From Victivallales bacterium (GTDB lineage Bacteria > Verrucomicrobiota > Lentisphaeria > Victivallales > UBA1829), in assembly GCA_045114235.1 (NCBI GenBank), contig JBGUKB010000078.1, forward strand, positions 1,200 to 65,199: 64,000 bases of DNA, in the 5' to 3' direction. The notes below the pieces were generated by a model. The model saw only the letters and a list, made by a program, of their open reading frames with translations, was not told the origin of the DNA and ran no database searches. This document shows positions 1-59,477 of this stretch, in pieces; position 1 is the first letter of the stretch; the number at the start of each line of letters is the position of its first letter. A program made the position numbers and the translations under genes.

Positions 1-3000
1 TCCCAGCCGAGGTCGGAGTTGGTGAGGTGCGTGGCGGCGCCGTCGATGCCGACGGTGTAGAACACCTGACCGCCCGCGTAGGACATCACGACGGAATCCT
101 TGCCGGAACCGGTGAAGTCGCCGCAGCCGATCATTTCCCAGTTGGCGTCATAACCAGCGCCGAGGCTGACCCAGTTGTCGGTTCCATCGGTCCAGACGCC
201 GAGGGCGCCGAGTTCGGTGGAGTGCCACAGGATGGAGTTCTTGCCTTCGTTGCCGGTCATGTTGCCGACCTTGTTCTTCCACACATAGCCCTCATTGTTG
301 GTGAGGTAGCTGATGTTGACCCAGTTGTCGTCCGTGTCCATCGCATCGAGGTAGTAGCCGATGAACGCGCCCTTGATGCCGCTGACTTCGACGTTGCCGA
401 CGAGGACGGAGTCCGCCTTGCCGTTGGCGTTCATGTCGTAGGCGCCGAGGACTTCCCAGGTGTCGACCGGGTGCGTCGCGTTCGTGCTCTGCCACGTGCT
501 CGTGCCGTCCAGCCAGAAGCCGATCTGGCCCTGGCCGCCGGTGTACTGGAACATCACGTCGGAGATGCCGTTCGCATTGACGTCGCTCTTCGCGATGTAG
601 GTCGGAGTCGGCGGGACCGGCTTCTCGGCGATCGTGAGAGCGAGATCGCTGTTGTCGGTGATGGCGAGCGCGTAGGTGAAGTCGCCGATCACGGTGGCTT
701 CAGCGCCGACCTTCAGCGTGTAGTTGCCGAACAGGACATCGCTGTTGAAGGTCGCAGCGTCGGAGGCGAGCAGGTAGGTGCCCGCGGCGGCGGTGGCGAC
801 GGACAGCGTGTAGGACGTGGTGCCGAAGACCTTGGAGAAGCCGTTGAACTGGGCGGCTTCAGCCGTGGCGTTGGCAGTGTCGAACGCAACCGTACCGTTG
901 ATCGTGATGGCCGTGTCGAACGTGGCCTTGCCGACGACGGTGGCGGGAGCTTCGACCGTGATGGTCTTGCTGTAGCCGTCAGCGAAGGAGACTTCGCCGC
1001 CGACGACGAAGACCTTGCCGTCGTCCGTGGTGCCGGCGATGGCGCCCGCGAGGGTCGCGAACGCATCGTAGCCGATCGTGGCGGTCTTGGTGCCGACCGT
1101 GACGGTGTCGCCGGCCTGCTTGTTGGACCATTCGCTGTTCGCATAGGTCACTTCCGGGGTTTCCGGAGTCGGCGGGACATAAGCGGCGACGGTGAGGATC
1201 AGGTCGCCGTTGGTGTCCACGAGGGAGACCGTGTAGGAGAAGTCGCCGATGATGGCAGCTTCGCCGAGCTTCAGCGTGGTGTTGCCGAACGCGATGTCGG
1301 AGGCGAATCCGGTCGCGTCGGAAGCAAGCGTCCAGGTGCCCGCGACCGCGGCAGCGGTCAGCGTGTACTTCGTGTCGCCGGTGACGTACTGGAAGCCGCC
1401 GAACTGAGCGCCGTTCGCGGCATACTGCGTGTCGAACGCGACGGTACCGTTGATGGTAACGTTGGTCGTGAACACGGCATTGCCGGCGATCGTGGCTTCA
1501 GCGTTGACGGTGAGGGTCTTCGCGATGTCCTTGGTGAAGGACGCCGTGCCGCCGAGGACCTTGACTTCGCCGTAGTCGACGACGGTGTCGTAGGCCTCAT
1601 CGCCGGTCAGGAACGCGTTGTAGCCGAACGTTGCGCCGGTGGCGACGACGTCGCCGGCCTTGGCGCCGGTCCATTCGCTGTTCGCGTAGGTGACGGTGAT
1701 CGGGGCGACAAAGACTTCCTTGGTCAGGCTGAGGACGTTGTTGTCGTCAAGAGCCAGCGTGTAGTCGATGCCGTCGATCTGGACCTTCTGACCGAACACG
1801 AGATCGCCGATCTTGCCCGCGGAGGTCTGCAGGACAGCATTGCTGCTGAAGCTGGCGGCCTCGGTCGCGAGAGCGTAGGTGCCGTCGGCCTGGTCAGCCG
1901 CGATCGTGATCGTGATGGTCGGAGCGCCAGTGAGGATCGAGTAGTTCGTCACGGAAGCGCTTGCGCCGGCACTCTGAGCGGAGATGTCGAAGTCGAGGAT
2001 GGAGCCTTCCGCGAAGGAGACTGCAGCACCCGTGAGCATTCCGAGACCGCCGGTGACCTTGGCGCCGGATTCGACCGTGAGCACGCCCTTGCCGCGGACG
2101 TTCGCGTTGACCGCGACCGCGCCGCTCTGGAGCGTGAGGGAACCGACCGCAGTACCGGTACCGATCGCCAGGCCGTTGCCTTCGCTGCCCTCGACGGTGG
2201 AGTCGGCGGTAGCGGTGACAGTGCGGACGATCGGGTTGGAGAACTGGACGTCGCTGGCGAGGATCGTGATGGAGCCGTTGGCGGAAACCGCAGCGGCGGC
2301 CGCATCGGCCGTTGCAAACGCATCGGAACCGATGATGGCGGTGCCGCCAGGAACCTCAACGACGGATCCGGCTTCTTCGCCTTCCCAGAGGGCGTTCACG
2401 AACACGTCGAGCTTCTTCATGTTCAGGTGGACTTCGTTGCCGACCACGTTGATCGTGTAGGCGGAGTCGTCTGTGATGAAGGAGCCGTCGCCGAAGATCG
2501 CGGTGGCGGTCAGGACCAGGATATCGGTCGTGGTGCCGTCGACGAACGGAGCGGCGGAGATCATGAACTTGCCGTCATTGACGAGGCTGCCGTTGATCGT
2601 GATCACATCGGATCCGTTGTAGTTCAGCTGGGCCGTCGCATCGATCGAGATGCTGTTGGACTTGAGGGCGGAGGTGGTGACCTTGCCGCCGGTCACGTAC
2701 AGGACAGCGTCGTCGGCCGTGAGGGCCGGGATGGCCTCGGTGGCACTGCCGAACGCGTTTTCGCCGTAGAACAGGGCTTCTCCATCATAGGAGGCGCCGA
2801 CCTTGACGGTTTCGGCGGTGTAGTCGCTGTTCACGTAGATGTCCTTGACCGCGCCCTTCAGCACGACGGCGTTGAGAACAGGCGTTTCGCCGGCGGTCTC
2901 ATAACCGAAGACGAGAGAATAGGGCGAGCCTTCCTCAAGTCCGATTACGGAGATGCCTGCTTCCGTGATGTTCTCGAAACCGCCGGTGACGGTCACAGTC

Positions 3001-6000
3001 TCTTCGCCCGAATCCGGATCGACGGTCTTGGTGACGGTCGTCGCCATGTCGATGAAGACCTTGCTCGCGCCGGTGTAGCCGGTCACGTCGATGTTGATCT
3101 TCGCTTCGGTGGTGGCCATGCGGAGCGTGGTACCGGTGAAGTAAGCATCGGACGCAAGGTTCATTTCGCGGAACCAGTACGTGTAGTTGACGTTGACGTC
3201 GCCGGAGACGTTCAGAACCTTCTTGCCGGTGAAGGAAGTCAGTTCTGCATCTCTGGTGGAGTTGTAGTCGAGACGTCCGGCGAGCAGGTAACCCTTGAAG
3301 TCGACATCTTCGAGGTTGAAGATGAAGTCGGAGTTGCTGTTCGGAGCGTGCGTGTCCCAACCGGTGCCCCAGTTGTTGTCGAGGGCCAAGCGCATGGTGT
3401 TGCGGCCATCGCCGAAGGTGCTGTCCTTGATATTGACGGTGATGGTGCCCTGAGAGCTCTGGTCGCCGTCCTGGATTCTCCACCACTTGTCGGCGGGAGT
3501 CTCAACATTGTTGAGGTTGATGACCACGTCGGCGCCGAGGAACGTCACGGTTTCGCCCGCGATCTCGACCACATCGGTCTTGCCGACCGGGGAGTCGCCG
3601 ATGAACACGATGTCATCGTAGATGGTCGAATCCGTGAAGTTGAACGTCACGAGGGACGGAGCAAGCTCAGTGCCTTCGATGTAGGTCAGGTTGTAGCCGA
3701 TCAGCGTCTGGTTGCCGCTGGCGCTGCCCATCGTCGAGCCGGTCACGTTGAACGTGGCGCTGCCGATGATGCGGTTCGGGTGGTTCCACGGACCGTCGCC
3801 CTGATCGTAGGTGCCGGTCACGGTGCCGAGGAAGTAGCTCGTGGCGCCGGTGATGAACGTGCTGTTCTCGATGTTGACCTCGACGTCGCCGAAGTAGATC
3901 ATGTCATCGTTGGTGTAGCCGTTGATCAGGACGGGCACGGTGCTGTCGGTGAGGTACAGGTTGGCGATCTTGCCCTGGGTGCTGACATCGTAGCCGGGAC
4001 GGCCGTTGACGTACAGGCCCATGCCGTTCGACATCTTGTTGACGGCCTCGGTCAGGGAGTAGAACGCATTGACGCCCCAGAGCAGGGTTTCGCCGGTGAT
4101 GCTGTTGGTCTGGCCTTCGACGATGCCCTCGCCCGCGGTACCGAACGCGATATCGACGTAGAAGTTATCGACGCGCATCGCGTGGATGCTGTTGTCGATG
4201 TGGCTGTAGTAGGCATGGAACGCGCCGGAGCCTTCGCCGGTGAGGACGATGTCGTCATCGGTGAAGTTGGCGATGCCGGTGCCGGTGCTGAGCACGACGG
4301 CGTCGGACGCAGCCTGGACATAGCCGGTCATGTCGATGGTGATCGTGGTGCCTGCGGCCTGTTCGATGCCGCCCGCGACGGTCAGGGTTCCGGCCTTGGC
4401 GGTCAGAGCGCTGAATCCGGAGATGGACGCGACGGAGAAGTCAGTGTTGACCGTGAGGGTGCCGCCGTCGCCGGCGAGGGCGCCGATCGCGGTACCGGAG
4501 GTGTTCGCACTGACGATCACGTCGTTGCCCTTCGTGAGCGTGACGGCTTCGGCGGAGGTGCCGCCCTCGATGTAGAGGGTGCTGCCCTTGCCGACTGCCG
4601 CCGCGGCGCTCGCGACGGAACTGAACGCGTTCTTGTTCCAGACGAGAGCCATGTCGCCGATGAACTTGTCGTGGACGTCCGCTTCGGTCCAGTCGGCGTT
4701 CGCGTAGGCGTTGCCGACGAGATCGGAGGTGACGAGCAGGGTCTTGCCGTCATCGAGGAACTCGTAGCCGAAGCCAGCGCCGATGACCGAGACGGCGGGT
4801 TTCACATCGCCGAAGCCGCCTTCCACGACGAGGACCTTCTTGGTGAACTCCGCGAAGTTGGAAGCGTCGATCGTGATGGCCGCACCGTTGAAGCTGGTCA
4901 GGTTCACGAGGCTGTTGGCGTCGAGCACGACGTTGTCGAAGCCGGTGACGTTCTTGACCGTGGCGTTGCCATCGAAGTACAGGGTGCTGATGCCGGTGAC
5001 GTCTTCCTCGCCGCCGTTGACGGTGCCGCCGATGGACACGCCGTCGGCGATGGTGACCGCGGCGTCGCCGGTAACCTTGGAGAAGGTGCCGCCGGCAACG
5101 ATGACGTTCGTCACAGTCGCGCCCTTGTTGATCGTGATGTCGACGGATGCGACATCCGGAGCCGGATTGAACTGTTCAACCCATTCCGGCGCTTCGTCGG
5201 TGCCGACATTGACCATGGTCACGCTGGCGTTGGTGCCGCCGACCACGTTCGAGATCTCGCCGCCGTTGACGACGGTGGTGTAGCCGAACGTGTAGAGCGA
5301 ACCGGAAGCGCTCATGACCTGGATCTTGGCATTGACACGACCGTCGTCGACGGCCGCATAGGCCTTCTTCATCGTGTCAACGGCGTTGTCGCCGAACACG
5401 AGGTAGTTGTTCGTGCCGTCTTCTTCAACGACCGAGACGCCGGTGGTGGCTTCGCCGTAGTCGTTGCCGTAGAAGACGTCGAGGCCAGGTCTGTAGACGA
5501 AGACGCTCGTGGAGCCGACGACGGCCTTGAAGCCTTCGATCTCTTCGCCAGCCGCATCGACGTACTTGGCGGCGATTTCCACACCCTCGGCAGGAGCGTT
5601 GATCGTGGTGCCGACCACTGCGAACGTGGCGACATCGCTGTCCTTCGTGCCGCGGAGGATGAAGCCTTCGCCTTCGGACATCGAGATCGTGCTGCCGGTC
5701 AGCAGTGCGCCTTCGGCGATCTCAATGCTGTTGAACTCTCTGACTCTGCGGATCTGGCTGGTGCCGCCGGTCACGTGGAGTCTGCGGACGCCGCTGATGT
5801 TGTTCAGGCCGCCGTCGGTCTGGCCGCGGCCGCCGTTCAGGTTGCCGTCCGCCATGGTGACGCCGCTGATGTAGACATCGGCTTCGCCGCTCCAGGAACC
5901 GGTCGTATCGGAACCGAAGAGGCCGATCGCCATGGTGTCGCCGGTGAAGGTGGAGTCGGTGACCGTCAGGGTGAGATAGGTGTTGTTCGCTTCCTGCGGT

Positions 6001-9000
6001 TCCCAGACCTGGATCCACTTGGCTGCCGGAGCATTGACGTTCGACAGGGTGACGTTGACTTCCTTCAGCTGGACGTCTTCCTGGCCTTCAGCCTTGCCGT
6101 TGAAGACGCGGTCGAAGAGCATCAGGTCGCCACGGAGGTCGTAGTCGGCGACCGTGACGTTCACGGTGCCGCCGGACAGGTTGGCATAACGCGCGATACG
6201 GAAATCGTTGGTGTCATGCGTGCCCTTGGAGATCGTGATGTTCCAGGCCGTGTCGTCATAGGACTCGGTCTGCGCATTCCAGTTGCCGACGACCATTTCC
6301 TGGTGAGCACTGTCATTGCCCTGGCCTGCGATGGCCGCGAACCAGGTGAGCGTGCTGGCAGTGATCACGGCGGTGAAGTCGCCGTCGCGGAACTTCTCGG
6401 TGCTGTCATCGTTGTAGCCGGCAACGAAGCCGCCGGTGGTGATGCCGGTGACGTTCACGTTGATCGGCGCAGCCGTGAAGAAGTAGTAGAAGGCGCCCGC
6501 GGTGCCGCCGTCCGCGAAGAGCGTGCCGCCGGTGACCGCATAGCGGGCGGCGTTGACGTTCCATTCGGACATGTTGTAACCGTAGACGATCGTAGCGGTC
6601 TTGCCGTCGATGGAGACGACTTCGCCGTTCCGGTCGGCAGTGGCGTTGGCATCGAGGAACGCGAATTCACCGCGTTCGACCGCGACGAGAGCCTTCTTGG
6701 TCTCATCGTAGTACGGCATCAGGCGGTCGGCGTTGTTCTGGGCACCGACTTGCGTACGGCTGAAGGTCTGGCCGGAAACAGGCTGGATGAAGTTGGCAAT
6801 GCCGTTGGCAGGCGCCAGGAGGTTGCCTGCGCCGCCCTTGTAGCCATCCATGTTCACGACGAGTTCGCCGCCCTTCTCGATGTAGGAGATGCCGGTGCTG
6901 ACGTTCACGTTGTTGCCGGCGCGGAAGCGGAAGTACTGGATGCCGTCCATCGTGGCGATGGAGGTAGCCTTGGAACCAGCCACGTCATTCGCGATCACGC
7001 GATAGCCGACCGTGGAACCGGCGACGCCCGCGAGGGAGCCGATGGTAACCGCGGAGGTGCTGGCGGTGATGCGGACGGTGGAGCGGTGATCGGCATCGGC
7101 GCCGTCGCCGATGACGAAGCCGCCGAACGAGCCGCCGTCGATCTGCAGGTTGACCTGGCCGATGCTGGTGAGGTCATACGTGCCGGAGAAGTTGCCGTCG
7201 AGCACATACAGCGTGTAATCGCTGGTGGTGTGGGCGATGGCTTCTTCCATGGTCTTGAACGCGTTCACGCCGTAGACGAGGAGGTCTCCGTTGTAGGAGA
7301 GGCCGTAGACGTCTTCGGTGAAGCTGCTGCAGAGGTAGACGTTGCCCGGGTCGGTGGAGACGAGCCATAGCTCATCCTTCCCGTTGTAGTAGTACTTGTC
7401 ATCGCCGTCAGCGGTGATGGTGATCGTCTTCATGTCGAGGTCCGCGAGGCCTTCGGCCTTCAGCACGAGCTTGCTCGGGCCGGTGTATTCGGCGGAAGCC
7501 AGGTGGATAGACTTGAGGTCGAGCGCGCCGTTGACGGTGAGGGTGTCGTTGCAGTCGATTTCGAGCGCGGTGACCGAGAGGTCGCCGGAGATGGTGGCGT
7601 TGGCCGTGACGGTCAGTTTGTCGAAATCGGTGACGTTGCCGCGGACGTTGACGGCTCCGGAGATCGTCAGGCCGCTGGTGCCGCCGGTGACGCTGTCCTT
7701 GGAACCGACGATGTCGCCGCCGGTGAAACCGGTGACGGCCGGTTCGACGCTCTCATCCGTGTACTGGAAGCCGAACGTGCCGCCCGCGAGTTCGAGGTTC
7801 GCGTTGCCGGAAACGGTCTTGCCTTCCTCGGCGATGGTGATGCCGGCGAAGAGGCCGTCGGAAACGACGAGGTTCACGAACGCGGTGGAATCCTGGTCGG
7901 CGATGGTGCCGTACAGCGGATCGAGCTCTTCAGAGGAACCGAAGGTGCCGCCGGTGATGTACAGCGCGTTGCCGGCCTTCAGAGCCGCCTTGGCAGCTTC
8001 GAAGCCGACGAGCTCGTCGTAACCTTCTTCTTCGCCGTAGGCGTTGCCCTTGACCACGACTTCTTCGCCGTCGAGGACCGTCAAGGCCATCGCTTCGCCG
8101 GTCGGGGCGATCTGGCCGACGACCACGTCGTTGCTGGTGTAGCCGGGGTTGTAGTACAGGTCTGCGACGGAGTCGTTGTCCCAGATGACCAGGCCCTTCT
8201 TGCCGGCCAGGAGCTGGTACTTCGCGGCATCCTGCTCGAGGTTGAGCTCGATGCCCGCGGCGTCGTTCGCGAAGCCGTTGGACAGGCTGACCAGGACCTT
8301 GGAGGCGCCGGTGTAGCCCTTGGCGTCGACCTTGACGATACCGCTGTCGCGGAACGTGATCGTGCCGCCGGAGAGGAACGTATCCACGTTCATATCCAGT
8401 TCCTGGAACCAGTTCGCCCACTGGATGAAGTTGGACGACCCCTTGATGATCAGGGTGGCGTAGTTGCCGCCGCCGACCGAGTTGTTGGTGAGGCCGGACG
8501 CGGACAGGAGCGCGTTGACGTGGGAGTTCTCGACCGTGAAGAAGATCGGCGAAGCGTCGCTGTGACGGTCGTTGTTGCCGTCGCCGAACGCCGCGATACG
8601 GGCGTTGTTGCCGCCCGTGCCGGGCATAATCGTCGAGTTCTTGATGGTCAGGCTGATGGAATCGAACTGACCCCAGTTGGTGACCTGGGCCAGGCCGATC
8701 CACTTCGCGCCGCCGCCGAACGTGACGTTGTCGAAGGTGACGTCAAGGACGGGGTGGACTTCGGGATCACCGATGCCGGTGCCGGAATCGCGCGTACCCG
8801 CACGGGCGTCGCCGAAGATCGGCTTGAGGTCGCCGCGGATGTCCCAGTTCTTGAAGGTCAGCGAGAGGGTGCTCTGGAGCGTGGCCCACTGGCCGAAGAA
8901 CCGCAGGTTGCTGTCGTTGCGGCCATTTTCCAACGTGATCGTGATCGGGGCATGATAGCTCAGGGACGTGTTGACGCGTTCCCAGGTATTGCCTCGGCCG

Positions 9001-12000
9001 AGGATATCGTTGAAGTTCGAGTTGTCGGCATTGTTGTTCTGGCCGTTCTCATCCGGGGAGATCGGAAGGAGGCTGCCGTCAATCGTAATGGTGACCGGAG
9101 TGTAGATGTGCGTATCATTCGGGGCACGGTTGCGGTTGATCGGATGGAGTCTGCTGACAGTTCCGCCGACGACGTACAGATTGAGTGCGCTCGTATTGGA
9201 CGGATTGACCAGGCCTTCGTTGTAGTTGGTGACATACAGCGTGCCGCCAGTAATGACCTTGCCCATGGCGGTATTCAGGTCGCTGAAGGCGTTGGAGCCC
9301 CACTGCAGGACGTCGCCGTTGAACATCGTCGTGCCGGTGATCTCTTCCGTGAAGGTCGGATCGAAGTAGATGCGCGTGAGGTCCATCAGGAACACTTCCT
9401 TGCCGGAAGCATAGACGGTGACGCCCGGATCGCAGGCGTACTGGGTCACGCCGGAGATGCCGGCGGTGGTGCTGATGACCTTGCGCAGGTTGGTGCCTTC
9501 TTCGGTCGCGACAGCGGCGCCGGTCAGGTAGATCGTGCCGCCGGAGAGGTCGATGTAGCCGGAATCCAGGAAGCTGGCGGTGCTGACGGTGAGGAGCTTG
9601 ACGCCCTCGATGCCGCCGACCTTGGAGCTGCCTTCGAGCAGAAGCACGGTGTCGTCCGCGCCGGCGATCACGCCGTCGACCGTGACGTTGTCGCCGAGGG
9701 TGATGGCCGCCTTGGTGACGGAGTAGACGCCTTCGCCCGCGGTGAGGGCGATGCCGCCGACGCTGCCCGCGTCGATCGTGATGCTCATTCCACTGGCATC
9801 GGTCTTGTCGACGCCGTAGATGTAGCCTTCGACCTTGCCGCCTTCCATGGCGAAGTTGGCGCCGTTCAGGTGGATCTCGTCGGCGAGCGTGCCGCCGGTG
9901 ACCGTCACGGTGTAGTCGTCAACGGGGTTGCCGAGGTTGGCGACCGCATCGGCCGCGGTGTTGAACGCGTTGAAGCCGAACTCGAGGTAGGTGCCGTCGG
10001 CGAGGTAGGTGCCGGTGGTGGCTTCCGAGTAGTCGGCGTTCAGGAACGTGTTGGTCGGGATCGTGCTCTTCAGGACGATTTCCTTGCCGTCCGCGGTCTT
10101 GAAGACGCTGTATTCGCCGCCTTCGTTGCCGAGGATCTGGATCTTGCCGACGTCGCCGGTGATGCCGTCGGTCGTGGAGATCACGACGTGCGAGCTGCCG
10201 AGGTAGTTGGTCGCGTCGATCGTGATGACCGCGTCGGAGAAGTTCAGGCTGTCGGCCGTGATCACGTTGTCCGCGAACATGGAGATGCCGGAGCCGGAAA
10301 CATCGCCGAAGTCGACGACCGCGCCCTTGGCGACCTGGACGTCTGCGAAGTTGGCGACATCGCCGAGAATGGCGTTGCCCTTGACGTTCATCGTGGACTT
10401 GCCGGAACCATCGGCGGAACCGATGACGGCGCCCGCCGCGACGGTGAGGGTCGAAGCCTTCCTGTCGCCCATGGTGACGGTGCCGAACTCGACGCCGCTC
10501 TTCACGTCAACGTTGTTGCCGTTGAAGTTCTGGGCTTCGTAGGTGCCGCCGGTGACGACGATGGTGCCGCCCCATTCGGAGGCGTAGATCAGAGGCTTCT
10601 CGAAGCTGGCGTGCGCGTTGCCGCCGAAGAACAGCTCCTTGCCGCCGACGGTCTGGCCGCTGATGTCGTCGGTGTAGGTGTCATTGACGTACATGTCGTC
10701 GGTCTTGTCGAACACGCCGATACGGCTGACGACCCAGCGGTCGCTGTTGTTAGCGGTAACATGGCGGAAGCCGCTGACGATGATTTCGCACTGGCCGGTC
10801 AGGTCGTTGTCGCCGATGACCGAGATGCTGCTCATGGCCTCGTCGGTGTAGATTTCGCCGGCGGTGATCACGGTGTGCGTGCCGCCTTCGTAACCGGACA
10901 TGTTGACGTAGATGTTGATCGGGGTGCCGGCGTTGTCGAGGACGTCCGTCGACAGGTTTTCGCCGCGGTAGGCCGTCGTGAACTGCAGGTTGTTGCTGAG
11001 TTCAAGTCTGGCGTCCGCGTCGATGATCAGGGTATCCCATTCCATGACCCAGCTGGCACGCGTGACGGCGCTCTTCTCCGTCGCGACGATGTGCAGCGTG
11101 GTCGGGGCGTTGAACACCTGGAGGGCGTTCGCGCCGTGCGTCAGGGAGTCGCCGGGACGAAGGGTGTTCGTCACGGAGGAACCGCCCATGGTGACGGTGA
11201 CGCTGCCGGCCGTGAAGGTGGACTGGTAGATGTTGGCGCCGCTGTTGGCGACCCAGTCGGCCGTGTGGATCACATAGAAGTGCTCACCGACCGTGGAGTC
11301 GTACACTTCGACGTTGATGTTGGCATTGATCTTGGTCGGCGTGGAGCCGCTCATGTTGATGCCGTAGAAACGTCCGAGGTAGGAATCTTCCACCGTCAGG
11401 TTGATGTCGATCGGGTCTTCTTCCTTGGTGCCGAAGTCGCCGTAGCCGATGTAGACCGAGGTGAACGTGCTGCCGACGATGGAGGCGTTGATGTCGCCGT
11501 CGATCACGCTGGTGTAGGTGTTGCCGGTGATGTAGAGGGCGCCGCCGTTGGTGTTGGTCGCGTTGAACGTGAAGTTGCCGTTCATCGTGTACGCCTTGTT
11601 CAGGCCGTAGATGGAGGTGGTGACGTTCGTGCCGACCAGCACGGTGGTGTGGTCGTTGTCGCTCACGAAACGGTCGCCTTCCGTGCCGTAGAGGCCGGAG
11701 GAGCCGCCGTTGAACTCGAGGGCGGTGTCGATGACGGCGCTGCCGCGCTGTCCGTCGTTGGTGGTGAAGCCGACCAGGACGAGCATGCCGTTGTCGGCCT
11801 GGGCCGCCGCGATCGCTTCATCCTTCGTCGCGAAGACGTTCACGCCCGCGAAGAGGGCGTCGCCCGTCGCAGCGTCAACGGTATCGCCGTCGACGAATGC
11901 GGACTGGTCTTTGCGGAAGTAGACGCGGTCGGCGGTAACGAGATATAGGTCGCCCGCGTGCACGGCTTCGCCGGTGAGGACCTTCGCGGCATAGGATTTC

Positions 12001-15000
12001 TTGCCGGTCGGGGTGATGATCGTGACCGTGGAGGCGTCGAGCGTGACCTTGGTGGGATCGACGTCGAGGACCAGCGTGGAGCCGGAGCCTTCTTCCGCGT
12101 CGATGACGATCTTGGTTTCGGCGGGCATGGTGCCGGTGAGGGTCAGGACCGCGTCGGCGTCGATCGTGAGCGTGGAGGCGGAGGCGATCGTGTCGATCGT
12201 GCTGTCGTCGTCGATGTAGATGGTCTTCGCGGTGACAGAGCCGACCACGGAGTCTTCGATCTCGACGTCGAATCCGGCTGCGACAACGTCCATGCCGGTA
12301 TTGTCGCCGGTGATGACGATCTTGGCGCCGGCCTTGGCGGCCGCGACTGCATCCGCGACGGACGCGAACGCGTTCTTGCCGAAGACGAGCGTATCGCCGT
12401 CGACGACGATCTTCTTGTCCGCGGAGAAGGAAGTGTTCACATAGAGCTCGTCGAGGGAGTAGATCGTGACGGAGGTCTCGGTCTTCACGTATTCGTAGAG
12501 GCCGGCCTTCGCGCCTTCGAGCTTGATGGTCCAGTCGTTCACGCCGCCTTCGGCGCGGACGATCTCGTTGGCGCCGGTCAGGCCGCCGACGTTGACCGTG
12601 ATGGTCTTCGTGCCGGAGGTCGTGAGGTTGCCGGAGACGACGAGGTTGGAGGTGTCGGACATGTAGATGCTGCCGCTGAGGGTCAGGGCGTTCTCGAGCT
12701 CGGGTTTGGCCTTGTTCGTGAACGCGACTTCCGAGTCGGCGTTGATCGTGATGTTGCCGTCGATCACGGCGCCGCCGGTGACGTACAGCTGGGAGGTCGT
12801 CAGGTCCTTGACGCCGGTGAGGGAACCGGCGCTGATGAAGCCGGTGTTGACCAGATTGGCATTGTTCAGGATCAGGCCGCCGTTCTGCGTGAAGACGCCG
12901 TCTCTGGACGTGGCGCGGAAGAACAGGTCGCCTTCGTTCTTGAAGGTGCCGCCAACGGAAATGTCACCGAGGGCAGTGATTCTGCCGTCGTTGAAGAAGT
13001 TGCCGCCGATGATCGCAGCGCTGGTCATGACGAAGTCGTAGTTGTTCAGGTTGCCGACCAGGAGCAGCGTGACGTTGTTGGGCTCGGCGAGATTGCGGTA
13101 CGTGCCGAGCACGCCGTAGTTGTCGAGGTTGGCGGCGCTGATGACGCCGGCGTTGATGCCGCGGCGGTTCAGGATGTCGCCGTTGATGATAAGAGTGTTC
13201 TCCAGGGAGACTTCACTCTTGTCCGTGCCGTTCGAAACGTTCAGCGTACCGCCGGTGACGTTCAGGGCAGTGAAGTTCTCGACGGAGCCGACCTTCGCGT
13301 TGCCTTCGACGTTCAGGATGCGGGCGGTGCCCTTCGTGCCGCCGTCGAGAGCGCCGGTCACGGACGCGCCGTAGATCAGGCCGTAGAACGTGCCGTTGCT
13401 GCGCTGTGCGACCGTGCCGCCCTTGAGGGTGACGTCGACCGCGCCGGTGATGTTCGCGCCGTTGCCGATGGAGACGTCGGAGAACAGGCCGCCGGCGAGG
13501 GTCATGTCGACCGTGCCGATGGTGTTGTTGCTGGCGCCGACGACGAGCTTGCCCGCGCCGCCGGTGATGCTGGCTTCGATCGCGCCGACCTTGTTGGCGA
13601 CGCCGGTGATGACCGCTTCTTCGCCTTCGCCTTCGACGGTGGCGTCGGCGATGATCAGGTTCGAAGCGACGACTGCATCGCTGTAGACGAGTTTGTCACG
13701 ATCGGCCGCGGCGGAGGAGAGACCAGCCACGTAGTTGCCGACGGTGGAGCCGGCGAGCTTGATGGAGGTGCCCTGTCCTTCGGCGTACACGTTTCCGATC
13801 ATGTTGCCGCCGGTCAGGTCGTTCGTGGCCTTGCTCGCGCCGCCGTAGACGTTGCCGATGGTGGAGCTCTTGATCGTGACGGTGCCCGCGAAGCCTTCCT
13901 GGTCGGCAAGCTTCACGTCGCCGATCACGCTGTTGCCGATGGAAATATCGGCAGCGCCGACGGCCGCGCCGGTCAGGTCGATGGTGCCGATGCCGGCGAC
14001 GTCTTCGTCCCCGGAATAGTCAATCGAGAGCTTCGCAGCGCCGGTGACATTGCCGACCTTGATCGCATTAATATTATTTGTATAAGTGGCGGAGAAGTTC
14101 GCGGAAGCGACATCGGCAGCGGTATCGCCGAGGACGATGTCTTTTCCGTTGAGGTCGATGTTGTGGACATCGCTGCCGGAGAACGAAGTCACGTAGTCCT
14201 TCGTCACGACGTCCGCATCGAACGTGGTCGGCTCGACGGACGTGTCGTCGCCGTAGACCATGATCGTGGTCGTGGCCTTGTCGGTGACATGGGCCTGCGC
14301 CGAGGCAACGGAGACGTAGCCCTTCGGGCCGAGTTCGGTGGGCTGGTCGTCAGCGTAGTTGCTGTTCACCAGCAGGACGGTGCTCGTGGCGTTGTGGAGG
14401 ACCAGCTTGTCGCCGGAGAGCTCGTAGTAACCCGGGAAAATACCCTTGGTATATTCGTGATCGCCGACCACGATGGCCAGGTCATCGGAAATGCCGGTGT
14501 CGGAAAGACCGGAAACGAGCACGGTGTCGGGCTCGGAGAGGTCGCCGATCACATAGATCGTGGAAATATTGGCGAGAGAAGCGACATTGACGGTGGAACC
14601 GAGCGCGATGCTCAGTTTGCCGCCGTCGGCCACGGTGATGCTGTTGGCGCGGACTTTGGCGCCGGCATTGACCGTGACGTTTTTGAAGCGGTCGATGGTG
14701 CCGGTGACGGTCTGGATGTCGGACGCGCCGAGGATCAGGTCGAACGTATCCACTTCCGGAGCGTCGCCGTTGCCGTTGCCGCGGATGTTGGCCGCGACCG
14801 ATCCGGCGACTGTGAGCTTGTAGGAGCCGGTCCAGTCGCCCGGGTTGTTGAAGTAGCCGATGTTGATGTCGCCGCCGACGCTGGATCCGGAGATGACGAC
14901 GTTGTAGTTGGCCGCGACGGTCTTGTTGCCCTGGCCGCTGTCGGTCTGGACGCCGCGGAAGGAACCGCTCACGGTCACGTTGGAAACGGTGCCGATCACG

Positions 15001-15623
15001 TTCGCGAGACTATCGGGATTGTTCTCGTTGTTGAGCTTGCCACTGTGAATGTGGAAGTCGCCGTTGGTCACGGCCGTATTCGTCACGGAGAACTTGATGT
15101 CGCCCCGGATCGTGCCGTACTGCTGGTAGGTCGTGCCGCCGCCGATCGTCAGGGAGTTGATCGTGGAACCTTCGACGTTGACGTCGACAAGCCCCTCGAT
15201 GACGATGTCGTTGCGGAGAGACGCGGGAGCCAGCGTATTGCGGACCAGCGAGTTCACCAGCGTGATCTTGATGCCGTTGCTGTACGTGCCCGCGGATTTC
15301 TTGGTGCCATACAGGTAGTTGCAGGACGCGCCGGACAGATAGAGGCCGTAGGTCCCGTCGCTGTAGAAGCTGTCGTTGTCGACGTTGTAGTTCGAGAGGT
15401 ACATGGTGGCGCCTTCGGCAGCGTAAATGGTCTGGCCGCCGAGCGTGATCCACTTCTTGGAAGTACCGGGATTGACGGCGTTCGCACCGTCCGTCACGTC
15501 GCCACCACTGGCGCCGTAAGTTAGCTTTTCCCCAGTGATCGAACTGGTACCGCCCAGCGCGTCGATCGCTTCCTGGGATGTATACGCCGGATCGACGTAC
15601 ACATTGCCTTGTGCTCTTGCCAT
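1..15623 (-). CDS. Giant repetitive surface/adhesin-like protein. The 5' end is complete and the 3' end is cut by the window edge (>5,200 codons). Contains beta-helix-type modules, tandem ~180-aa modules and FG-GAP-like blades
   Basis: ATG at 15623 with AAGGAG at 15632-15637 (8-nt spacer). Hand translation gives MARAQGNVYVDPAYTSQEAIDALGG...WITLGGQTIYAAEG at the N-terminus. Near position 1 it gives ...YDMNANGKADSVLVG...GDFTGSGKDSVVMSYAGGQVFYTVGIDGAATHLTNSDLGW. The track lists no minus ORF in this frame (end mod 3 = 2), which fits a frame with no stop inside the window. The three big plus ORFs are the codon-aligned antisense frame. Confidence 0.8.
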   Translation of the reverse strand, partial: MARAQGNVYVDPAYTSQEAIDALGGTSSITGEKLTYGASGGDVTDGANAVNPGTSKKWITLGGQTIYAAEGATMYLSNYNVDNDSFYSDGTYGLYLSGASCNYLYGTKKSAGTYSNGIKITLVNSLVRNTLAPASLRNDIVIEGLVDVNVEGSTINSLTIGGGTTYQQYGTIRGDIKFSVTNTAVTNGDFHIHSGKLNNENNPDSLANVIGTVSNVTVSGSFRGVQTDSGQGNKTVAANYNVVISGSSVGGDINIGYFNNPGDWTGSYKLTVAGSVAANIRGNGNGDAPEVDTFDLILGASDIQTVTGTIDRFKNVTVNAGAKVRANSITVADGGKLSIALGSTVNVASLANISTIYVIGDLSEPDTVLVSGLSDTGISDDLAIVVGDHEYTKGIFPGYYELSGDKLVLHNATSTVLLVNSNYADDQPTELGPKGYVSVASAQAHVTDKATTTIMVYGDDTSVEPTTFDADVVTKDYVTSFSGSDVHNIDLNGKDIVLGDTAADVASANFSATYTNNINAIKVGNVTGAAKLSIDYSGDEDVAGIGTIDLTGAAVGAADISIGNSVIGDVKLADQEGFAGTVTIKSSTIGNVYGGASKATNDLTGGNMIGNVYAEGQGTSIKLAGSTVGNYVAGLSSAAADRDKLVYSDAVVASNLIIADATVEGEGEEAVITGVANKVGAIEASITGGAGKLVVGASNNTIGTVDMTLAGGLFSDVSIGNGANITGAVDVTLKGGTVAQRSNGTFYGLIYGASVTGALDGGTKGTARILNVEGNAKVGSVENFTALNVTGGTLNVSNGTDKSEVSLENTLIINGDILNRRGINAGVISAANLDNYGVLGTYRNLAEPNNVTLLLVGNLNNYDFVMTSAAIIGGNFFNDGRITALGDISVGGTFKNEGDLFFRATSRDGVFTQNGGLILNNANLVNTGFISAGSLTGVKDLTTSQLYVTGGAVIDGNITINADSEVAFTNKAKPELENALTLSGSIYMSDTSNLVVSGNLTTSGTKTITVNVGGLTGANEIVRAEGGVNDWTIKLEGAKAGLYEYVKTETSVTIYSLDELYVNTSFSADKKIVVDGDTLVFGKNAFASVADAVAAAKAGAKIVITGDNTGMDVVAAGFDVEIEDSVVGSVTAKTIYIDDDSTIDTIASASTLTIDADAVLTLTGTMPAETKIVIDAEEGSGSTLVLDVDPTKVTLDASTVTIITPTGKKSYAAKVLTGEAVHAGDLYLVTADRVYFRKDQSAFVDGDTVDAATGDALFAGVNVFATKDEAIAAAQADNGMLVLVGFTTNDGQRGSAVIDTALEFNGGSSGLYGTEGDRFVSDNDHTTVLVGTNVTTSIYGLNKAYTMNGNFTFNATNTNGGALYITGNTYTSVIDGDINASIVGSTFTSVYIGYGDFGTKEEDPIDINLTVEDSYLGRFYGINMSGSTPTKINANINVEVYDSTVGEHFYVIHTADWVANSGANIYQSTFTAGSVTVTMGGSSVTNTLRPGDSLTHGANALQVFNAPTTLHIVATEKSAVTRASWVMEWDTLIIDADARLELSNNLQFTTAYRGENLSTDVLDNAGTPINIYVNMSGYEGGTHTVITAGEIYTDEAMSSISVIGDNDLTGQCEIIVSGFRHVTANNSDRWVVSRIGVFDKTDDMYVNDTYTDDISGQTVGGKELFFGGNAHASFEKPLIYASEWGGTIVVTGGTYEAQNFNGNNVDVKSGVEFGTVTMGDRKASTLTVAAGAVIGSADGSGKSTMNVKGNAILGDVANFADVQVAKGAVVDFGDVSGSGISMFADNVITADSLNFSDAVITIDATNYLGSSHVVISTTDGITGDVGKIQILGNEGGEYSVFKTADGKEIVLKSTIPTNTFLNADYSEATTGTYLADGTYLEFGFNAFNTAADAVANLGNPVDDYTVTVTGGTLADEIHLNGANFAMEGGKVEGYIYGVDKTDASGMSITIDAGSVGGIALTAGEGVYSVTKAAITLGDNVTVDGVIAGADDTVLLLEGSSKVGGIEGVKLLTVSTASFLDSGYIDLSGGTIYLTGAAVATEEGTNLRKVISTTAGISGVTQYACDPGVTVYASGKEVFLMDLTRIYFDPTFTEEITGTTMFNGDVLQWGSNAFSDLNTAMGKVITGGTLYVTNYNEGLVNPSNTSALNLYVVGGTVSRLHPINRNRAPNDTHIYTPVTITIDGSLLPISPDENGQNNNADNSNFNDILGRGNTWERVNTSLSYHAPITITLENGRNDSNLRFFGQWATLQSTLSLTFKNWDIRGDLKPIFGDARAGTRDSGTGIGDPEVHPVLDVTFDNVTFGGGAKWIGLAQVTNWGQFDSISLTIKNSTIMPGTGGNNARIAAFGDGNNDRHSDASPIFFTVENSHVNALLSASGLTNNSVGGGNYATLIIKGSSNFIQWANWFQELDMNVDTFLSGGTITFRDSGIVKVDAKGYTGASKVLVSLSNGFANDAAGIELNLEQDAAKYQLLAGKKGLVIWDNDSVADLYYNPGYTSNDVVVGQIAPTGEAMALTVLDGEEVVVKGNAYGEEEGYDELVGFEAAKAALKAGNALYITGGTFGSSEELDPLYGTIADQDSTAFVNLVVSDGLFAGITIAEEGKTVSGNANLELAGGTFGFQYTDESVEPAVTGFTGGDIVGSKDSVTGGTSGLTISGAVNVRGNVTDFDKLTVTANATISGDLSVTALEIDCNDTLTVNGALDLKSIHLASAEYTGPSKLVLKAEGLADLDMKTITITADGDDKYYYNGKDELWLVSTDPGNVYLCSSFTEDVYGLSYNGDLLVYGVNAFKTMEEAIAHTTSDYTLYVLDGNFSGTYDLTSIGQVNLQIDGGSFGGFVIGDGADADHRSTVRITASTSAVTIGSLAGVAGSTVGYRVIANDVAGSKATSIATMDGIQYFRFRAGNNVNVSTGISYIEKGGELVVNMDGYKGGAGNLLAPANGIANFIQPVSGQTFSRTQVGAQNNADRLMPYYDETKKALVAVERGEFAFLDANATADRNGEVVSIDGKTATIVYGYNMSEWNVNAARYAVTGGTLFADGGTAGAFYYFFTAAPINVNVTGITTGGFVAGYNDDSTEKFRDGDFTAVITASTLTWFAAIAGQGNDSAHQEMVVGNWNAQTESYDDTAWNITISKGTHDTNDFRIARYANLSGGTVNVTVADYDLRGDLMLFDRVFNGKAEGQEDVQLKEVNVTLSNVNAPAAKWIQVWEPQEANNTYLTLTVTDSTFTGDTMAIGLFGSDTTGSWSGEADVYISGVTMADGNLNGGRGQTDGGLNNISGVRRLHVTGGTSQIRRVREFNSIEIAEGALLTGSTISMSEGEGFILRGTKDSDVATFAVVGTTINAPAEGVEIAAKYVDAAGEEIEGFKAVVGSTSVFVYRPGLDVFYGNDYGEATTGVSVVEEDGTNNYLVFGDNAVDTMKKAYAAVDDGRVNAKIQVMSASGSLYTFGYTTVVNGGEISNVVGGTNASVTMVNVGTDEAPEWVEQFNPAPDVASVDITINKGATVTNVIVAGGTFSKVTGDAAVTIADGVSIGGTVNGGEEDVTGISTLYFDGNATVKNVTGFDNVVLDANSLVNLTSFNGAAITIDASNFAEFTKKVLVVEGGFGDVKPAVSVIGAGFGYEFLDDGKTLLVTSDLVGNAYANADWTEADVHDKFIGDMALVWNKNAFSSVASAAAAVGKGSTLYIEGGTSAEAVTLTKGNDVIVSANTSGTAIGALAGDGGTLTVNTDFSVASISGFSALTAKAGTLTVAGGIEQAAGTTITIDMTGYVQAASDAVVLSTGTGIANFTDDDIVLTGEGSGAFHAYYSHIDNSIHAMRVDNFYVDIAFGTAGEGIVEGQTNSITGETLLWGVNAFYSLTEAVNKMSNGMGLYVNGRPGYDVSTQGKIANLYLTDSTVPVLINGYTNDDMIYFGDVEVNIENSTFITGATSYFLGTVTGTYDQGDGPWNHPNRIIGSATFNVTGSTMGSASGNQTLIGYNLTYIEGTELAPSLVTFNFTDSTIYDDIVFIGDSPVGKTDVVEIAGETVTFLGADVVINLNNVETPADKWWRIQDGDQSSQGTITVNIKDSTFGDGRNTMRLALDNNWGTGWDTHAPNSNSDFIFNLEDVDFKGYLLAGRLDYNSTRDAELTSFTGKKVLNVSGDVNVNYTYWFREMNLASDAYFTGTTLRMATTEAKINIDVTGYTGASKVFIDMATTVTKTVDPDSGEETVTVTGGFENITEAGISVIGLEEGSPYSLVFGYETAGETPVLNAVVLKGAVKDIYVNSDYTAETVKVGASYDGEALFYGENAFGSATEAIPALTADDAVLYVTGGKVTTSALKSNSISIDATAQLNYNGSDVITINGSLVNDGKFMISAAPFVDGTTTDILVLTATAIFGDGSFITDDSAYTINVVGNEVHLNMKKLDVFVNALWEGEEAGSVVEVPGGTAIIGSDAFATADAAAAAVSANGSITILASDVQFSNPIVRTVTATADSTVEGSEGNGLAIGTGTAVGSLTLQSGAVAVNANVRGKGVLTVESGAKVTGGLGMLTGAAVSFAEGSILDFDISAQSAGASASVTNYSILTGAPTITITIAADQADGTYALATEAASFSSNAVLQTSAGKIGDLVFGQKVQIDGIDYTLALDDNNVLSLTKEVFVAPITVTYANSEWTGAKAGDVVATGATFGYNAFLTGDEAYDTVVDYGEVKVLGGTASFTKDIAKTLTVNAEATIAGNAVFTTNVTINGTVAFDTQYAANGAQFGGFQYVTGDTKYTLTAAAVAGTWTLASDATGFASDIAFGNTTLKLGEAAIIGDFSYTVSLVDTNGDLILTVAAYVPPTPETPEVTYANSEWSNKQAGDTVTVGTKTATIGYDAFATLAGAIAGTTDDGKVFVVGGEVSFADGYSKTITVEAPATVVGKATFDTAITINGTVAFDTANATAEAAQFNGFSKVFGTTSYTLSVATAAAGTYLLASDAATFNSDVLFGNYTLKVGAEATVIGDFTYALAITDNSDLALTIAEKPVPPTPTYIAKSDVNANGISDVMFQYTGGQGQIGFWLDGTSTWQSTNATHPVDTWEVLGAYDMNANGKADSVLVGNVEVSGIKGAFIGYYLDAMDTDDNWVNISYLTNNEGYVWKNKVGNMTGNEGKNSILWHSTELGALGVWTDGTDNWVSLGAGYDANWEMIGCGDFTGSGKDSVVMSYAGGQVFYTVGIDGAATHLTNSDLGW

Positions 15624-17325: not shown

Positions 17326-18759
17326 ATGAAGTTCTTCCGTATGATGAAGGGCCTTATGCCGATCCTCGCGGCGGCCGCCACGACCGCCTGCGCACAAACG
17401 ACCGCGGAATCGCAGTTCGACCAGAACGTCGTCAAAATCCCCGCCGACAAGCAGAAATTCCACATCTTCCTGCTGACCGGCCAGTCCAACATGGAAGGCG
17501 CGGGCTATCCCGTCCTGCCGGAATACCTGACCGGCACGACGCAGGTGCTCGAGCTGAACGACCAGATGGAGTGGGTGAAGAACGTCGCTCCGTACGGACG
17601 CGGCTACGGCCCGGGCGAATCCTTCGCGCTGCACTATGCGAAACTGCATCCGGACGTGACGGTCGGCCTGATCCACGCGGCCCGCGGCGGACGCAGCATG
17701 CGTGAACTGAGCAAGGGCGGCCGCGACAACACCGACCGCGCGCCGAACTACGACAACCTCATCAAGAAGATCAAATTCGCGCAGGAACAGGGCGAGGTCA
17801 AGGCGATGCTCTGGCACCAGGGCGAATCCGACACCGGCAACCGCAACTACATCAACGAGCTCAACAAGCTCGTGACCGACGTCCGCACGGACATCGGGAT
17901 CGCCGACCTGCCGCTCTTCGTGGGCGAGCTCGGCCGTTACGTGAACTGGACCGACGGCTTCAACCGGATGATCCAGGACGTCGAGTCCAAGATCGAAAAC
18001 TGCAAGCTCATCAGCTCTCAGGGCCTGATGCACCGCGGTGACGAGCTCCACATCTCCGGCTACTCCGTCAATACCTTCGGCTGCCGTTACCTCGACGCCT
18101 ACCTGAAGATGCGCGAGCCCGAGACCGCGAAGAAATTCGCGCCGCTCCTCGCCGAAATCGAAAAGAAAATGGCGGAATACGACGCCCGCTGGGTCACCGT
18201 CGAAAACGGCGACATGACGATGGGCGAAGACCGTCCGCTCGGCTGGGAAGCCCGCCGCTGGGACCCCATCCGCATCAATCCCCACCGCGACACCGAAGTT
18301 TACGCCTCCGCACCCGCCTCGCTGCGCATTGAAAACCTTGATCCGGCGACCGCCCTTCCCTCGGTCCAGGAAATTTCGACGGCTCCCGGCGCGGACGGCA
18401 TCGGCACCTGGATCCGCGACGTGGCAGGCACGCACGTGAAGGTCTCCTGCAAGGTGAAGAACGAAGGCTACAGCAAGGTCACGATCCGCATCCGCGGCGA
18501 AAACTCCGGATTCCAGCGCTGCCTCGACCTCCAGCTCTTCGACGCCACCGACGCCAAGGAATGGACCAGCTACTCCGGCGAATTCGACATCCCGGCGCAG
18601 GCCATCCGCGACCGCATCGGCATCCTGGTCGAAGGCAAAGGCAAGGCATGGCTCGACGACGTCGTGATCGAAAAGGTCAAGAACGGGCAGACCATCCCCG
18701 ACACCAAGATCGACGTCGAGTATGAGAAGAAGATGAACGAAAGCTTCTCCAAGCTTTAA
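17326..18759 (+). CDS. SASA/SGNH-type carbohydrate (sialate-like) O-acetylesterase with a C-terminal carbohydrate-binding-like domain. Secreted or lipoprotein
   Basis: GQSNMEG motif, WHQGESD, signal peptide MKFFRMMKGLMPILAAAATTAC, RBS CAGGAGA upstream. The minus ORF 17212-18849 is its shadow. Confidence 0.8.
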   Translation: MKFFRMMKGLMPILAAAATTACAQTTAESQFDQNVVKIPADKQKFHIFLLTGQSNMEGAGYPVLPEYLTGTTQVLELNDQMEWVKNVAPYGRGYGPGESFALHYAKLHPDVTVGLIHAARGGRSMRELSKGGRDNTDRAPNYDNLIKKIKFAQEQGEVKAMLWHQGESDTGNRNYINELNKLVTDVRTDIGIADLPLFVGELGRYVNWTDGFNRMIQDVESKIENCKLISSQGLMHRGDELHISGYSVNTFGCRYLDAYLKMREPETAKKFAPLLAEIEKKMAEYDARWVTVENGDMTMGEDRPLGWEARRWDPIRINPHRDTEVYASAPASLRIENLDPATALPSVQEISTAPGADGIGTWIRDVAGTHVKVSCKVKNEGYSKVTIRIRGENSGFQRCLDLQLFDATDAKEWTSYSGEFDIPAQAIRDRIGILVEGKGKAWLDDVVIEKVKNGQTIPDTKIDVEYEKKMNESFSKL

Positions 18760-18895
18760 GGAGGACAAGTCCTCCACTGCAGTAGTGCGCGGCTCTGCTC
18801 GCGCACACTGTAAGCAGTGACGAAACAGTGCCGGGCTCCGCTCCGGCACACTGCAAGCAGTGACGAAGCAGTGCCCGGCTCCGCTCGGGCACAGA
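18760..18895 (+). repeat. 3'-end multi-hairpin repeat element (family copy 1): hairpin A plus three tandem ~43-nt C/B hairpin units
   Basis: Starts 1 nt after the TAA stop. Hairpin A is GGAGGAC-AA-GTCCTCC. Then come GTGCGCG-GCTCTGCT-CGCGCAC, GTGCCGG-GCTCCGCT-CCGGCAC and GTGCCCG-GCTCCGCT-CGGGCAC, interleaved with CACTG-YAAG-CAGTG. Confidence 0.7.
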
Positions 18896-18917
18896 ATGAC
18901 ACCAAATACAATATAGG

Positions 18918-18955
18918 CTGCGGACGCCGCAACAAGCTCCGCGGCTTTTTCTTTT
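18918..18955 (+). terminator. Rho-independent terminator
   Basis: GCTGCGGA ... TCCGCGGC stem (one G.U pair) followed by TTTTTCTTTT. Confidence 0.6.
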
Positions 18956-43232: not shown

Positions 43233-43254
43233 CCTCTCTTCTCATCTTTTTCCG

Positions 43255-43321
43255 AAAAAAGGTGCGCCGGCGGTGTGCCGTTGCGAAGCGAGGCACTGCT
43301 TCAGTGGAGGACTTGTCCTCC
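43255..43321 (-). repeat. 3'-end multi-hairpin repeat element (family copy 2), overlapping the last codons and stop of carB and ending in a T-run
   Basis: Minus strand: GGAGGACAAGTCCTCC-ACTGAAGCAGTG-CCTCGCTTCGCAACGGCAC...CACCTTTTTT. The first 20 nt are identical to copy 1. Confidence 0.65.
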
Positions 43322-59271: not shown

Positions 59272-59477
59272 GATTCGTTTCCTTGTTCGGGTTGAGGTGT
59301 TCAAAAACTCTAATAATGTACCGCCTGCCGGACACTTTGTCAACCCCCTGCCCCGCATTCCGCCTCAAAAACGCCCGTGGAAGCTGGAAGTCCTGTTTTA
59401 CATTTTCTGTCAACATATCAACTTTTTGTAAAACATTTCCGTCGTCATCTCCGGTCGTTTCGCCTGAAAATGTACTT

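Follow-up and report, generated by a model that had tools for sequence, protein, structure and literature searches.

The 64,000-nucleotide stretch of Victivallales DNA analysed here (contig JBGUKB010000078.1 of assembly GCA_045114235.1, hereafter the window) carries at three sites a small multi-hairpin element, which we identify, with a probability of roughly 0.6, as a dispersed repeat of the repetitive extragenic palindromic (REP) type, belonging to the GTAG superfamily and to a rumen clade of Victivallales (Lentisphaerota; Planctomycetes–Verrucomicrobia–Chlamydiae or PVC group). Copy number, subfamilies, placement and intragenic copies agree with the REP profile, as in part does a degenerate tag, and lead to this superfamily. 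The initial annotation, made from the window alone, had likened the element to REPs and bacterial interspersed mosaic elements (BIMEs), and the comparison was essentially right: the distribution, the subfamilies, the GTAG-like tag, the intragenic copies and the open reading frames (ORFs) that end in the element match those described in PMC3733652. Literature searches turned up no paper that connects REPs, REPINs or RAYTs with Victivallales or Lentisphaerota, and the element would add a well-defined REP-type family to Lentisphaerota. The one feature that merits experiment is the flush, frame-aware junction that many copies form with stop codons.

The unit of the element is about 47 nt long and comprises a small hairpin A (6 bp with a CAAG apex), a palindromic linker (ACTG-NNN-YAGTG) and a hairpin C of the form GTGC-xxx / GC-TNC-GC / xxx-GCAC, the loop of which reads GCTCYGCT in copy 1 of the window. 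Hairpin C measures 22–24 nt, combines a 7-bp stem with an inner GC/GC closure (97.7% of cells paired) and is the minimum-energy fold on both strands. A covariance model (R1) was built from an alignment (A1) of 49 distinct units, and covariation statistics were taken over the 150 best R1 matches. In these, 97.9% of stem cells form standard pairs, two-sided changes occur at 11 of 15 pairs and the covariation score is 0.332, compared with 0.095 after shuffling and no more than 0.108 for slid partners; RNAalifold independently gives the same two-hairpin structure. The initial annotation had taken such covariation as an argument for selection on RNA structure, a conclusion that is not supported here. 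The stem variation consists of discrete subfamilies that recur at many loci and in many metagenome-assembled genomes (MAGs), the loops and the GTG...CAC closure staying constant. Among stem cells that are not Watson–Crick pairs, G:U (19) is no commoner than A:C (26), with no G:U excess in sense or antisense copies, and tolerance of wobble pairs specific to the RNA strand was not seen. The DNA of either strand folds equally well, and between same-direction genes 20 arrays are sense to the upstream gene and 22 antisense. Together, these observations speak against selection on structure in the sense transcript alone; the features fit a palindrome maintained at the DNA level or one that is faithfully copied.

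The family is numerous and confined to a narrow group of hosts. A scan of species-representative genomes with GRAGGRCAAGYCCTYCACTG gave more than 106 loci among the matches listed, about 90 of them spread over 12 or more rumen MAGs that carry a Lentisphaeria or Victivallales label, with at least about ten loci per MAG. In 93 of 121 cases from these Lentisphaeria and Victivallales loci, the motif runs on into the linker and a perfect 5–8-bp hairpin C. The 16 listed matches in other phyla lack hairpin C, and their hairpin A is complementary in 5/16, the chance rate; the three matches in viral sequences were likewise all due to chance, and a phage origin was discarded on that basis. That the window holds part of a dispersed family with complementary stem variation, as originally proposed, was borne out by the R1 scan, which at E ≤ 0.001 detected 179 copies in 738 kb of sequence from these loci, and a search of rumen metagenomes anchored on hairpin C added at least 120 further loci. 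The window itself carries three arrays in 64 kb. Logan contig SRR25030060 (18,245 bp) is 100% identical to the window across the esterase gene upstream of copy 1 and ends 28 nt into the element; a break at this point is expected of a repeat, and the contig end looks like a repeat-caused assembly break. The element would account for assembly breaks in rumen Victivallales MAGs, and R1 offers a ready marker for this clade.

Variation within the family is extensive and mostly paired. The stem cores of hairpin C include CGCG, CCGG, CCCG, CCGT, TCCG and CTTG, each with its complement, and further subfamilies have GC-TCA..TT-GC and CC-TT..AAC-GG. In the metagenome sample anchored on hairpin C, hairpin A proved far more diverse than the first search pattern allowed: hairpins of the GGAGGC type carry many different loops between complementary arms, and GGAGAC, TGAGGC, GAAGGC, CCAGGC, GCAGGC, CAAGGC and CAC-NN-C-type arms are each paired with their complements. 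A second flavour of small hairpin (CACTG-YAAG-CAGTG) also covaries family-wide, with CACTGC, CACAGC, CACCGC and CACCCC each facing its complement. The original description further noted that hairpin A pairs a Shine–Dalgarno-like sequence with an anti-Shine–Dalgarno-like one. This pairing is not essential, since the position can also be filled by hairpins of the types CACAG, CACCGC, GGAGAC, CCAGGC and GCAGGC, of which the first three are likewise found directly against stop codons. Shine–Dalgarno use in these genomes, where GGAG, GAGG or AGGA peaks at −15 to −11 before the ATG in 49% of 332 genes, does make the 5′ arm of hairpin A a genuine Shine–Dalgarno-like sequence, masked by the hairpin.

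The linker behaves differently from the two hairpins. Its palindrome (CACTG-NNN-CAGTG) is constant in the 5′ arm, whereas changes in the 3′ arm go uncompensated, with no double changes, and we therefore read it as two facing tags and not as a third hairpin. The CACTG..CAGTG 'hairpin B' of the initial annotation accordingly stands only in part: the inter-unit CACTG-YAAG-CAGTG hairpins (18806–18819 and 18849–18862) covary and the linker between A and C does not, and a fold of that linker competes with hairpins A and C, which the minimum-energy folds contain. Across the 150 copies, the tetranucleotide whose last base opens hairpin C reads GCAG 55 times, GTAG 34 times and GTTG 16 times, so that GYAG makes up 60%; tetranucleotides other than these three make up 30%, and the last G of the tag is paired. 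Most arrays are single units and 20 have two to four, arranged head-to-tail with a period of 43–49 nt; units of mixed orientation are limited to a few large clusters, L047 and L073 among them. Hairpin A occurs twice in succession (A-ACTG-A-linker-C) at L105 (about 6069–6098, minus strand) and L047 (5208–5247, minus strand).

Copy 1 in the window is a 133-nt array (18760–18892, plus strand) that follows a SASA-type esterase gene (17326–18759, plus strand; Pfam SASA). As stated in the initial annotation, it starts straight after the esterase stop (TAA, 18757–18759) with hairpin A (GGAGGA-CAAG-TCCTCC, 18760–18775; inverted-repeat search and folding), there written GGAGGAC-AA-GTCCTCC. A 9-nt linker, ACTGCAGTA (18776–18784), ends in a GTAG-like tag before the first hairpin C, GTGCGCG-GCTCTGCT-CGCGCAC (18785–18806; inverted repeat and covariance model). 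In the second unit hairpin A is replaced by the second-type small hairpin CACTG-TAAG-CAGTG (18806–18819), followed by GTGCCGG-GCTCCGCT-CCGGCAC (18828–18849; inverted repeat), and in the third by CACTG-CAAG-CAGTG (18849–18862), followed by GTGCCCG-GCTCCGCT-CGGGCAC (18871–18892; inverted repeat), with a full-length model match at 18848–18892 (34.6 bits). The three hairpin C stems and their GCTCYGCT loop are exactly those originally described. Tandem Repeats Finder reports a period of 43 nt (2.6 copies, score 171, 18784–18893), the region folds with a z-score of −4.8 relative to shuffled sequence, and CACTG-N2-5-CAGTG gives four matches compared with 0.13 expected by chance.

Related copies had been claimed at the ends of carB and amtB, and the model confirms both, scoring 65.9 bits for copy 2 and 63.5 for copy 3 (70.9 for the first unit of copy 1, 18760–18806). 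The claim fails in one detail: copy 2 (one full unit, 43275–43321, minus strand) does not follow the carB stop, the TGA of which (43301–43303) lies in the linker. The carB ORF (43301–46573, minus strand; Pfam CPSase) is translated through hairpin A (43306–43321) and stops at the TGA in CAC-TGA-AGCAGTG, giving a tail ...GGQVLH*. Beyond copy 2, inspection of the minus strand reveals a GC-rich segment followed by a T6 run (43245–43274) and then a promoter-like site of the next gene (43232–43204). Copy 3 (one full unit, 61288–61336, plus strand) directly follows the native TAA (61285–61287) of amtB (59908–61287, plus strand); its hairpin A, GAAGGG-CAAG-CCCTTC, carries two compensatory changes, and its hairpin C is GTGCGC-TCAGCTTCGCTT-GCGCAC. 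The AmtB C-terminus, GFQ(F/I)F(S/T/V)N(M/Q/V), is strikingly conserved, and a P-II (GlnB/GlnK) gene precedes amtB (region 59377–61287 in the window) in all of the outgroup loci fetched (L231–L235). The hairpin A motif is found at 18760 and 43306 only; with filters off, the covariance model detects no copy in the window beyond the three sites, and Rfam 15 gives no match at gathering score anywhere in it.

Placement was analysed with simple gene calls based on G+C content at third codon positions, and is restricted to gene 3′ sides: 35 arrays lie between convergent genes, 42 between same-direction genes (in the two orientations counted above) and three between divergent genes, mostly 0–25 nt from a stop codon. 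The position 'exactly at gene 3′ ends' assumed at the outset describes about one quarter of the arrays, which start right after a stop; the others overlap the end of the coding sequence, lie 8–150 nt away or are intragenic. Among the copies inside coding sequences, a gene for an HrpB-like DEAH helicase contains one, three or four antisense units in three MAGs (L052, 5060–5106; L037, 5321–5463; L076, 533–724; gene calls and Pfam). They are in frame, between the HA2 and HrpB_C domains, and each unit of about 48 nt corresponds to about 16 codons.

Whether the hairpins could be repeated transcription terminators or bidirectional roadblocks is decided largely by what follows them. Such a function would suit GC-rich, stable hairpins at gene 3′ ends, which are frequent between convergent genes, and the T6 run after copy 2. 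However, the base at +1 is a purine in 97% of cases and opens a purine-rich tail after hairpin C, and there is no T-tract at hairpins A or C; canonical terminators lie 18–25 nt beyond copies 1 and 3 and at many other loci, an element-free ortholog retains the same terminator, and copies also occur within coding sequences. We regard this explanation as very improbable. The element instead lies, as proposed at the outset, between the stop codon and the true terminator: downstream of copy 1 is an intrinsic-terminator-like stem-loop followed by TTTTTCTTTT (18916–18955, plus strand), homologous to the terminator of the element-free ortholog L007, and downstream of copy 3 a canonical intrinsic terminator CCCCGGTC...GGCCGGGG followed by CTTTCTTTT (61355–61389, plus strand).

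GTAG-tagged REPs have stems of 6–9 bp, loops closed by GC/GC and degenerate tags (GYAG and similar), form subfamilies with alternative complementary stem residues, lie between same-direction and convergent ORFs beside the upstream 3′ end, supply TAG stops through their tag, insert in helicase and repair genes and form tightly spaced tail-to-tail dimers; families are known from the PVC bacteria Opitutus terrae and Rhodopirellula baltica (Di Nocera et al. 2013; PMC3733652). The Victivallales element shares the 22–24-nt palindrome, the stem length, the inner GC/GC closure, in 60% of copies a GYAG-type 5′ tag, the complementary subfamilies, the placement at gene ends, the TAG-ending ORFs, the helicase copies and the tail-to-tail dimers. 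It differs in that hairpin C is paired with a different, shorter hairpin (6 bp, CAAG apex), in that the tag is GCAG more often than GTAG and in that one quarter of the arrays start at +1 after a stop.

Several observations weigh against the REP assignment. The tag is degenerate, and only 23% of copies have GTAG proper. Head-to-tail repetition, as seen for the dimers here, is absent or rare in most described REP families (PMC3733652). A check for a cognate RAYT-like transposase, suggested in the initial annotation, gave a negative result: phmmer --max, with the E. coli TnpA-REP identical to that in 4ER8 as the query, detected no RAYT or IS200-like ORF in the 1.64 Mb of DNA flanking the elements. 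ORFs between inverted copies were considered as a possible transposase and are GH43-like. No clean pair of empty and filled sites with defined ends was encountered, most 'empty' orthologs resembling decayed copies. Finally, the sharp sense-only peak of element starts directly after stop codons (offset 0), which has no antisense counterpart, would not be expected if the element were purely a selfish repeat at the DNA level.

Comparison of orthologous sites nonetheless documents turnover between close relatives. At amtB the element occupies the same site in four genomes that share at least 97% identity over the last 86 coding bases; across these, hairpin A carries compensatory changes and hairpin C switches subfamily. 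Other orthologous sites retain the element and swap stem variants and unit number, and one orthologous gene end carries the element in opposite orientations. In RUG12541 the ortholog of the esterase gene, 97% identical over the coding sequence, is followed by a homologous terminator without the 133-nt array, 60 nt of other sequence replacing the array and the 23-nt spacer. Decayed remnants (such as AGAGAC-GTCCTTG) were recognized at other ortholog pairs, and outgroup amtB orthologs (69–84% protein identity) have no element. Mobility of the element is inferred from these comparisons. At L091 (1634–1680), the element is immediately followed by a palindromic repeat of another kind (ATAGGTCTTATAGGTCTTAT / GGGACCTATAGGTCCTAT), and homology between L091 and its ortholog L076 stops exactly at the stop codon.

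Under the REP assignment, the unit would consist of two unlike small palindromes facing each other across the palindromic junction CACTG-NNN-CAGTG, that is, of a tail-to-tail REP heterodimer that is itself repeated head-to-tail. The element would persist as DNA, its hairpins being kept Watson–Crick through copying by a hairpin-recognizing enzyme, of which a RAYT-like HUH/Y1 nuclease seems the most plausible, or through gene conversion; alternatively, the Watson–Crick stems could reflect a need for both strands to fold. Selection would purge copies from promoters and coding regions and leave those at gene 3′ ends, where the element would be co-transcribed since it lies upstream of terminators. 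By analogy with E. coli REPs, its hairpins probably have a secondary role in the 3′-untranslated region (3′-UTR), where they would hold back exonucleases and modulate translation close to the point of termination. E. coli REPs within 15 nt of a stop stall ribosomes and lower expression (Liang, Rudd and Deutscher 2015, as cited in PMC12306157), which makes a secondary effect on the upstream gene plausible.

The junction with stop codons is often precise to the base. In 27 of about 120 genome-derived arrays an ORF ends at offset 0 to hairpin A (19 TAA, eight TGA and no TAG). Other ORFs end at +21 (the TGA of CACTGA, about 13 arrays), at +26 (the TAG of the GTAG tag, about six arrays), at +3 (two arrays, the stop being the first triplet of a TGAGGC...GCCTCA stem) or, in a few arrays and always with an extra G or GGAG, at −2, −4 or −8; stop triplets at neighbouring offsets amount to 2.5%. 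With a genome-wide stop usage of 183 TAA, 346 TGA and 51 TAG, TAA is enriched among flush stops (Fisher p of about 0.001, from a tally of 17 TAA and 10 TGA). An independent sample, the metagenome set anchored on hairpin C, replicates the pile-up: of its 77 first units, 19 begin flush with the stop (offset 0), in eight others the stop falls among the opening four nucleotides of the stem, and only three lie at −1 to −25. It is independent of the hairpin sequence (GGAGGAC, GGAGGC, GGAGAC, TGAGGC, CACAG, CACAC and CACCGC), and flush placement is retained across 4–5 species while the stems change. Where the stop forms part of the stem, as at L047, L105 and L053, the pairing triplet changes along with it (TGA...TCA versus TAA...TTA). 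Antisense copies lie 8–25 nt from stops and are never flush. At 374 element-free gene ends there was no preference for a hairpin or a G at +1, and a general habit of these genomes of placing hairpins or G-runs after stops was rejected on this result.

By comparison with homologs, the stop codon next to a flush element appears to be native. Of the 120 AmtB homologs listed, 118, down to 64% identity, end at the same residue, the others being a fragment and one with a divergent tail; outgroup amtB orthologs without the element stop at the same codon, and the esterase and two other ortholog pairs share their stop positions. A stop created after insertion, or supplied by the element, was rejected for amtB on the conserved C-terminus and these identical outgroup stops. 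Insertion at a TRA triplet was also rejected: TRA precedes the element only as the in-frame stop (27/27) and precedes none of the other 95 first units, at a background of 2.5%. Two ortholog pairs differ by indels, of 14 nt and 19 nt, each with its right end exactly at the first base of hairpin A, and several junctions truncate a preceding hairpin C; junction-anchored deletion is therefore real. As a 'ratchet' at the base of hairpin A it would be only a partial explanation, leaving unaccounted for why antisense copies never become flush. Our best guess is that junction-anchored small deletions, together with selection for short C-terminal tails, could drive copies to offset 0. At L105 the TGA that closes an ORF belongs to a decayed first hairpin A, with a complete unit beginning at the following base, so a 'flush' junction can arise inside an older copy.

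The same junction is an argument for a dedicated sense-strand 3′-UTR RNA element coupled to translation termination, in which a hairpin at +1 would be melted by the terminating ribosome, freeing its 3′ arm and the linker and altering mRNA decay, ribosome release or re-initiation. In favour of such an element are the flush stops in both samples irrespective of hairpin sequence, the native stop and conserved AmtB C-terminus, the retention of flushness over several species despite stem change, the stop-containing stems whose partners covary and the lack of a hairpin preference at +1 of element-free genes; in addition, E. coli REPs less than 16 nt from a stop cut translation, according to work cited in PMC12306157. 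However, arrays between same-direction genes are about as often antisense as sense, either orientation can occupy one gene end, sense copies show no G:U excess, three quarters of the arrays are not flush and antisense copies reside within a helicase gene. We consider such an RNA element unlikely.

A related proposal concerns only the positioning of the small hairpin, which may be placed or kept at +1 after native stops by a process that senses the reading frame; we hold this to be rather improbable. The ribosome at the stop could melt hairpin A and toggle the unit between the A/C fold and the linker fold, or an insertion or repair mechanism could be targeted to the boundary where translation ends. 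If true, this would be a REP family with single-nucleotide, frame-aware positioning. The pile-up itself, being replicated and independent of hairpin sequence, provides natural variants (offsets 0, +3, +21, +26, −2 and −4, and antisense) for the study of stop-proximal structure in termination, tagging and mRNA decay and of site choice by REP-like elements.

A miniature inverted-repeat transposable element, which derives from an insertion sequence by deletion and depends for movement on a DDE transposase recognizing terminal inverted repeats, would likewise be short, abundant, non-coding and variably present between relatives, but has very little probability here, since the ends of the unit are two different hairpins and not terminal inverted repeats, the arrays are head-to-tail, a TRA triplet precedes the element only as the gene's own stop and the flanks contain no target-site duplication, the 3′ flanks being only purine-rich; a 12-nt direct repeat was discarded as well, a partial hairpin A closing only about 12% of arrays.

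Other repeat systems resemble the REP-type element described here in part. Like the REPs and BIMEs of E. coli, it is a palindrome of the probably transcribed 3′-UTR between stop and terminator, often within 15 nt of the stop. About 11% of E. coli REPs in the RepRanger set are within 15 nt of a stop, and the text consulted (PMC12306157) describes no single-base peak. The sequences are unrelated, and the regular alternation of REP orientation that characterizes BIMEs contrasts with the head-to-tail Victivallales arrays. REPIN–RAYT systems share with it the two adjacent palindromes per unit (Bertels and Rainey 2011; PMC3116915), long vertical persistence, within-genome populations and subfamilies, and recognition of DNA hairpins (PMC3116915; TnpA-REP structure 4ER8, PMC3479197). 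The arms of a REPIN, however, are the same REP inverted and pair with each other, whereas the two Victivallales hairpins differ in sequence and length and only their 5-nt junction arms are mutually complementary, without covariation; nor was the single-copy, REP-flanked RAYT of those systems found in the flanking DNA searched. Mycobacterial interspersed repetitive units are 40–100-bp tandem intergenic units, the ends of which overlap the flanking stop and start codons; they carry small ORFs and do not form hairpin dimers. The palindromic elements of Rickettsia, which insert in frame within genes, are longer than the Victivallales unit. To our knowledge, neither is related in sequence to the Victivallales element.

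Two further features of the window lie apart from the element. A period-66 array (36731–37617) contains 13.5 copies of a repeat of about 36 nt, GGCTGGGGCTTGTAGAGTTCAAACGGTACACTTGATT, with spacers of about 30 nt, and adjoins a gene (37756–40836, minus strand) for a 1025-residue protein with HNH_4, RuvC_III and Cas9 alpha-helical lobe domains; by its repeats and domains, the pair is a type II CRISPR–Cas9 locus. At the start of the window, a single open frame of more than 5200 codons (3–15623, minus strand) runs off the edge, and the product of the Logan contig there has 5027 residues.

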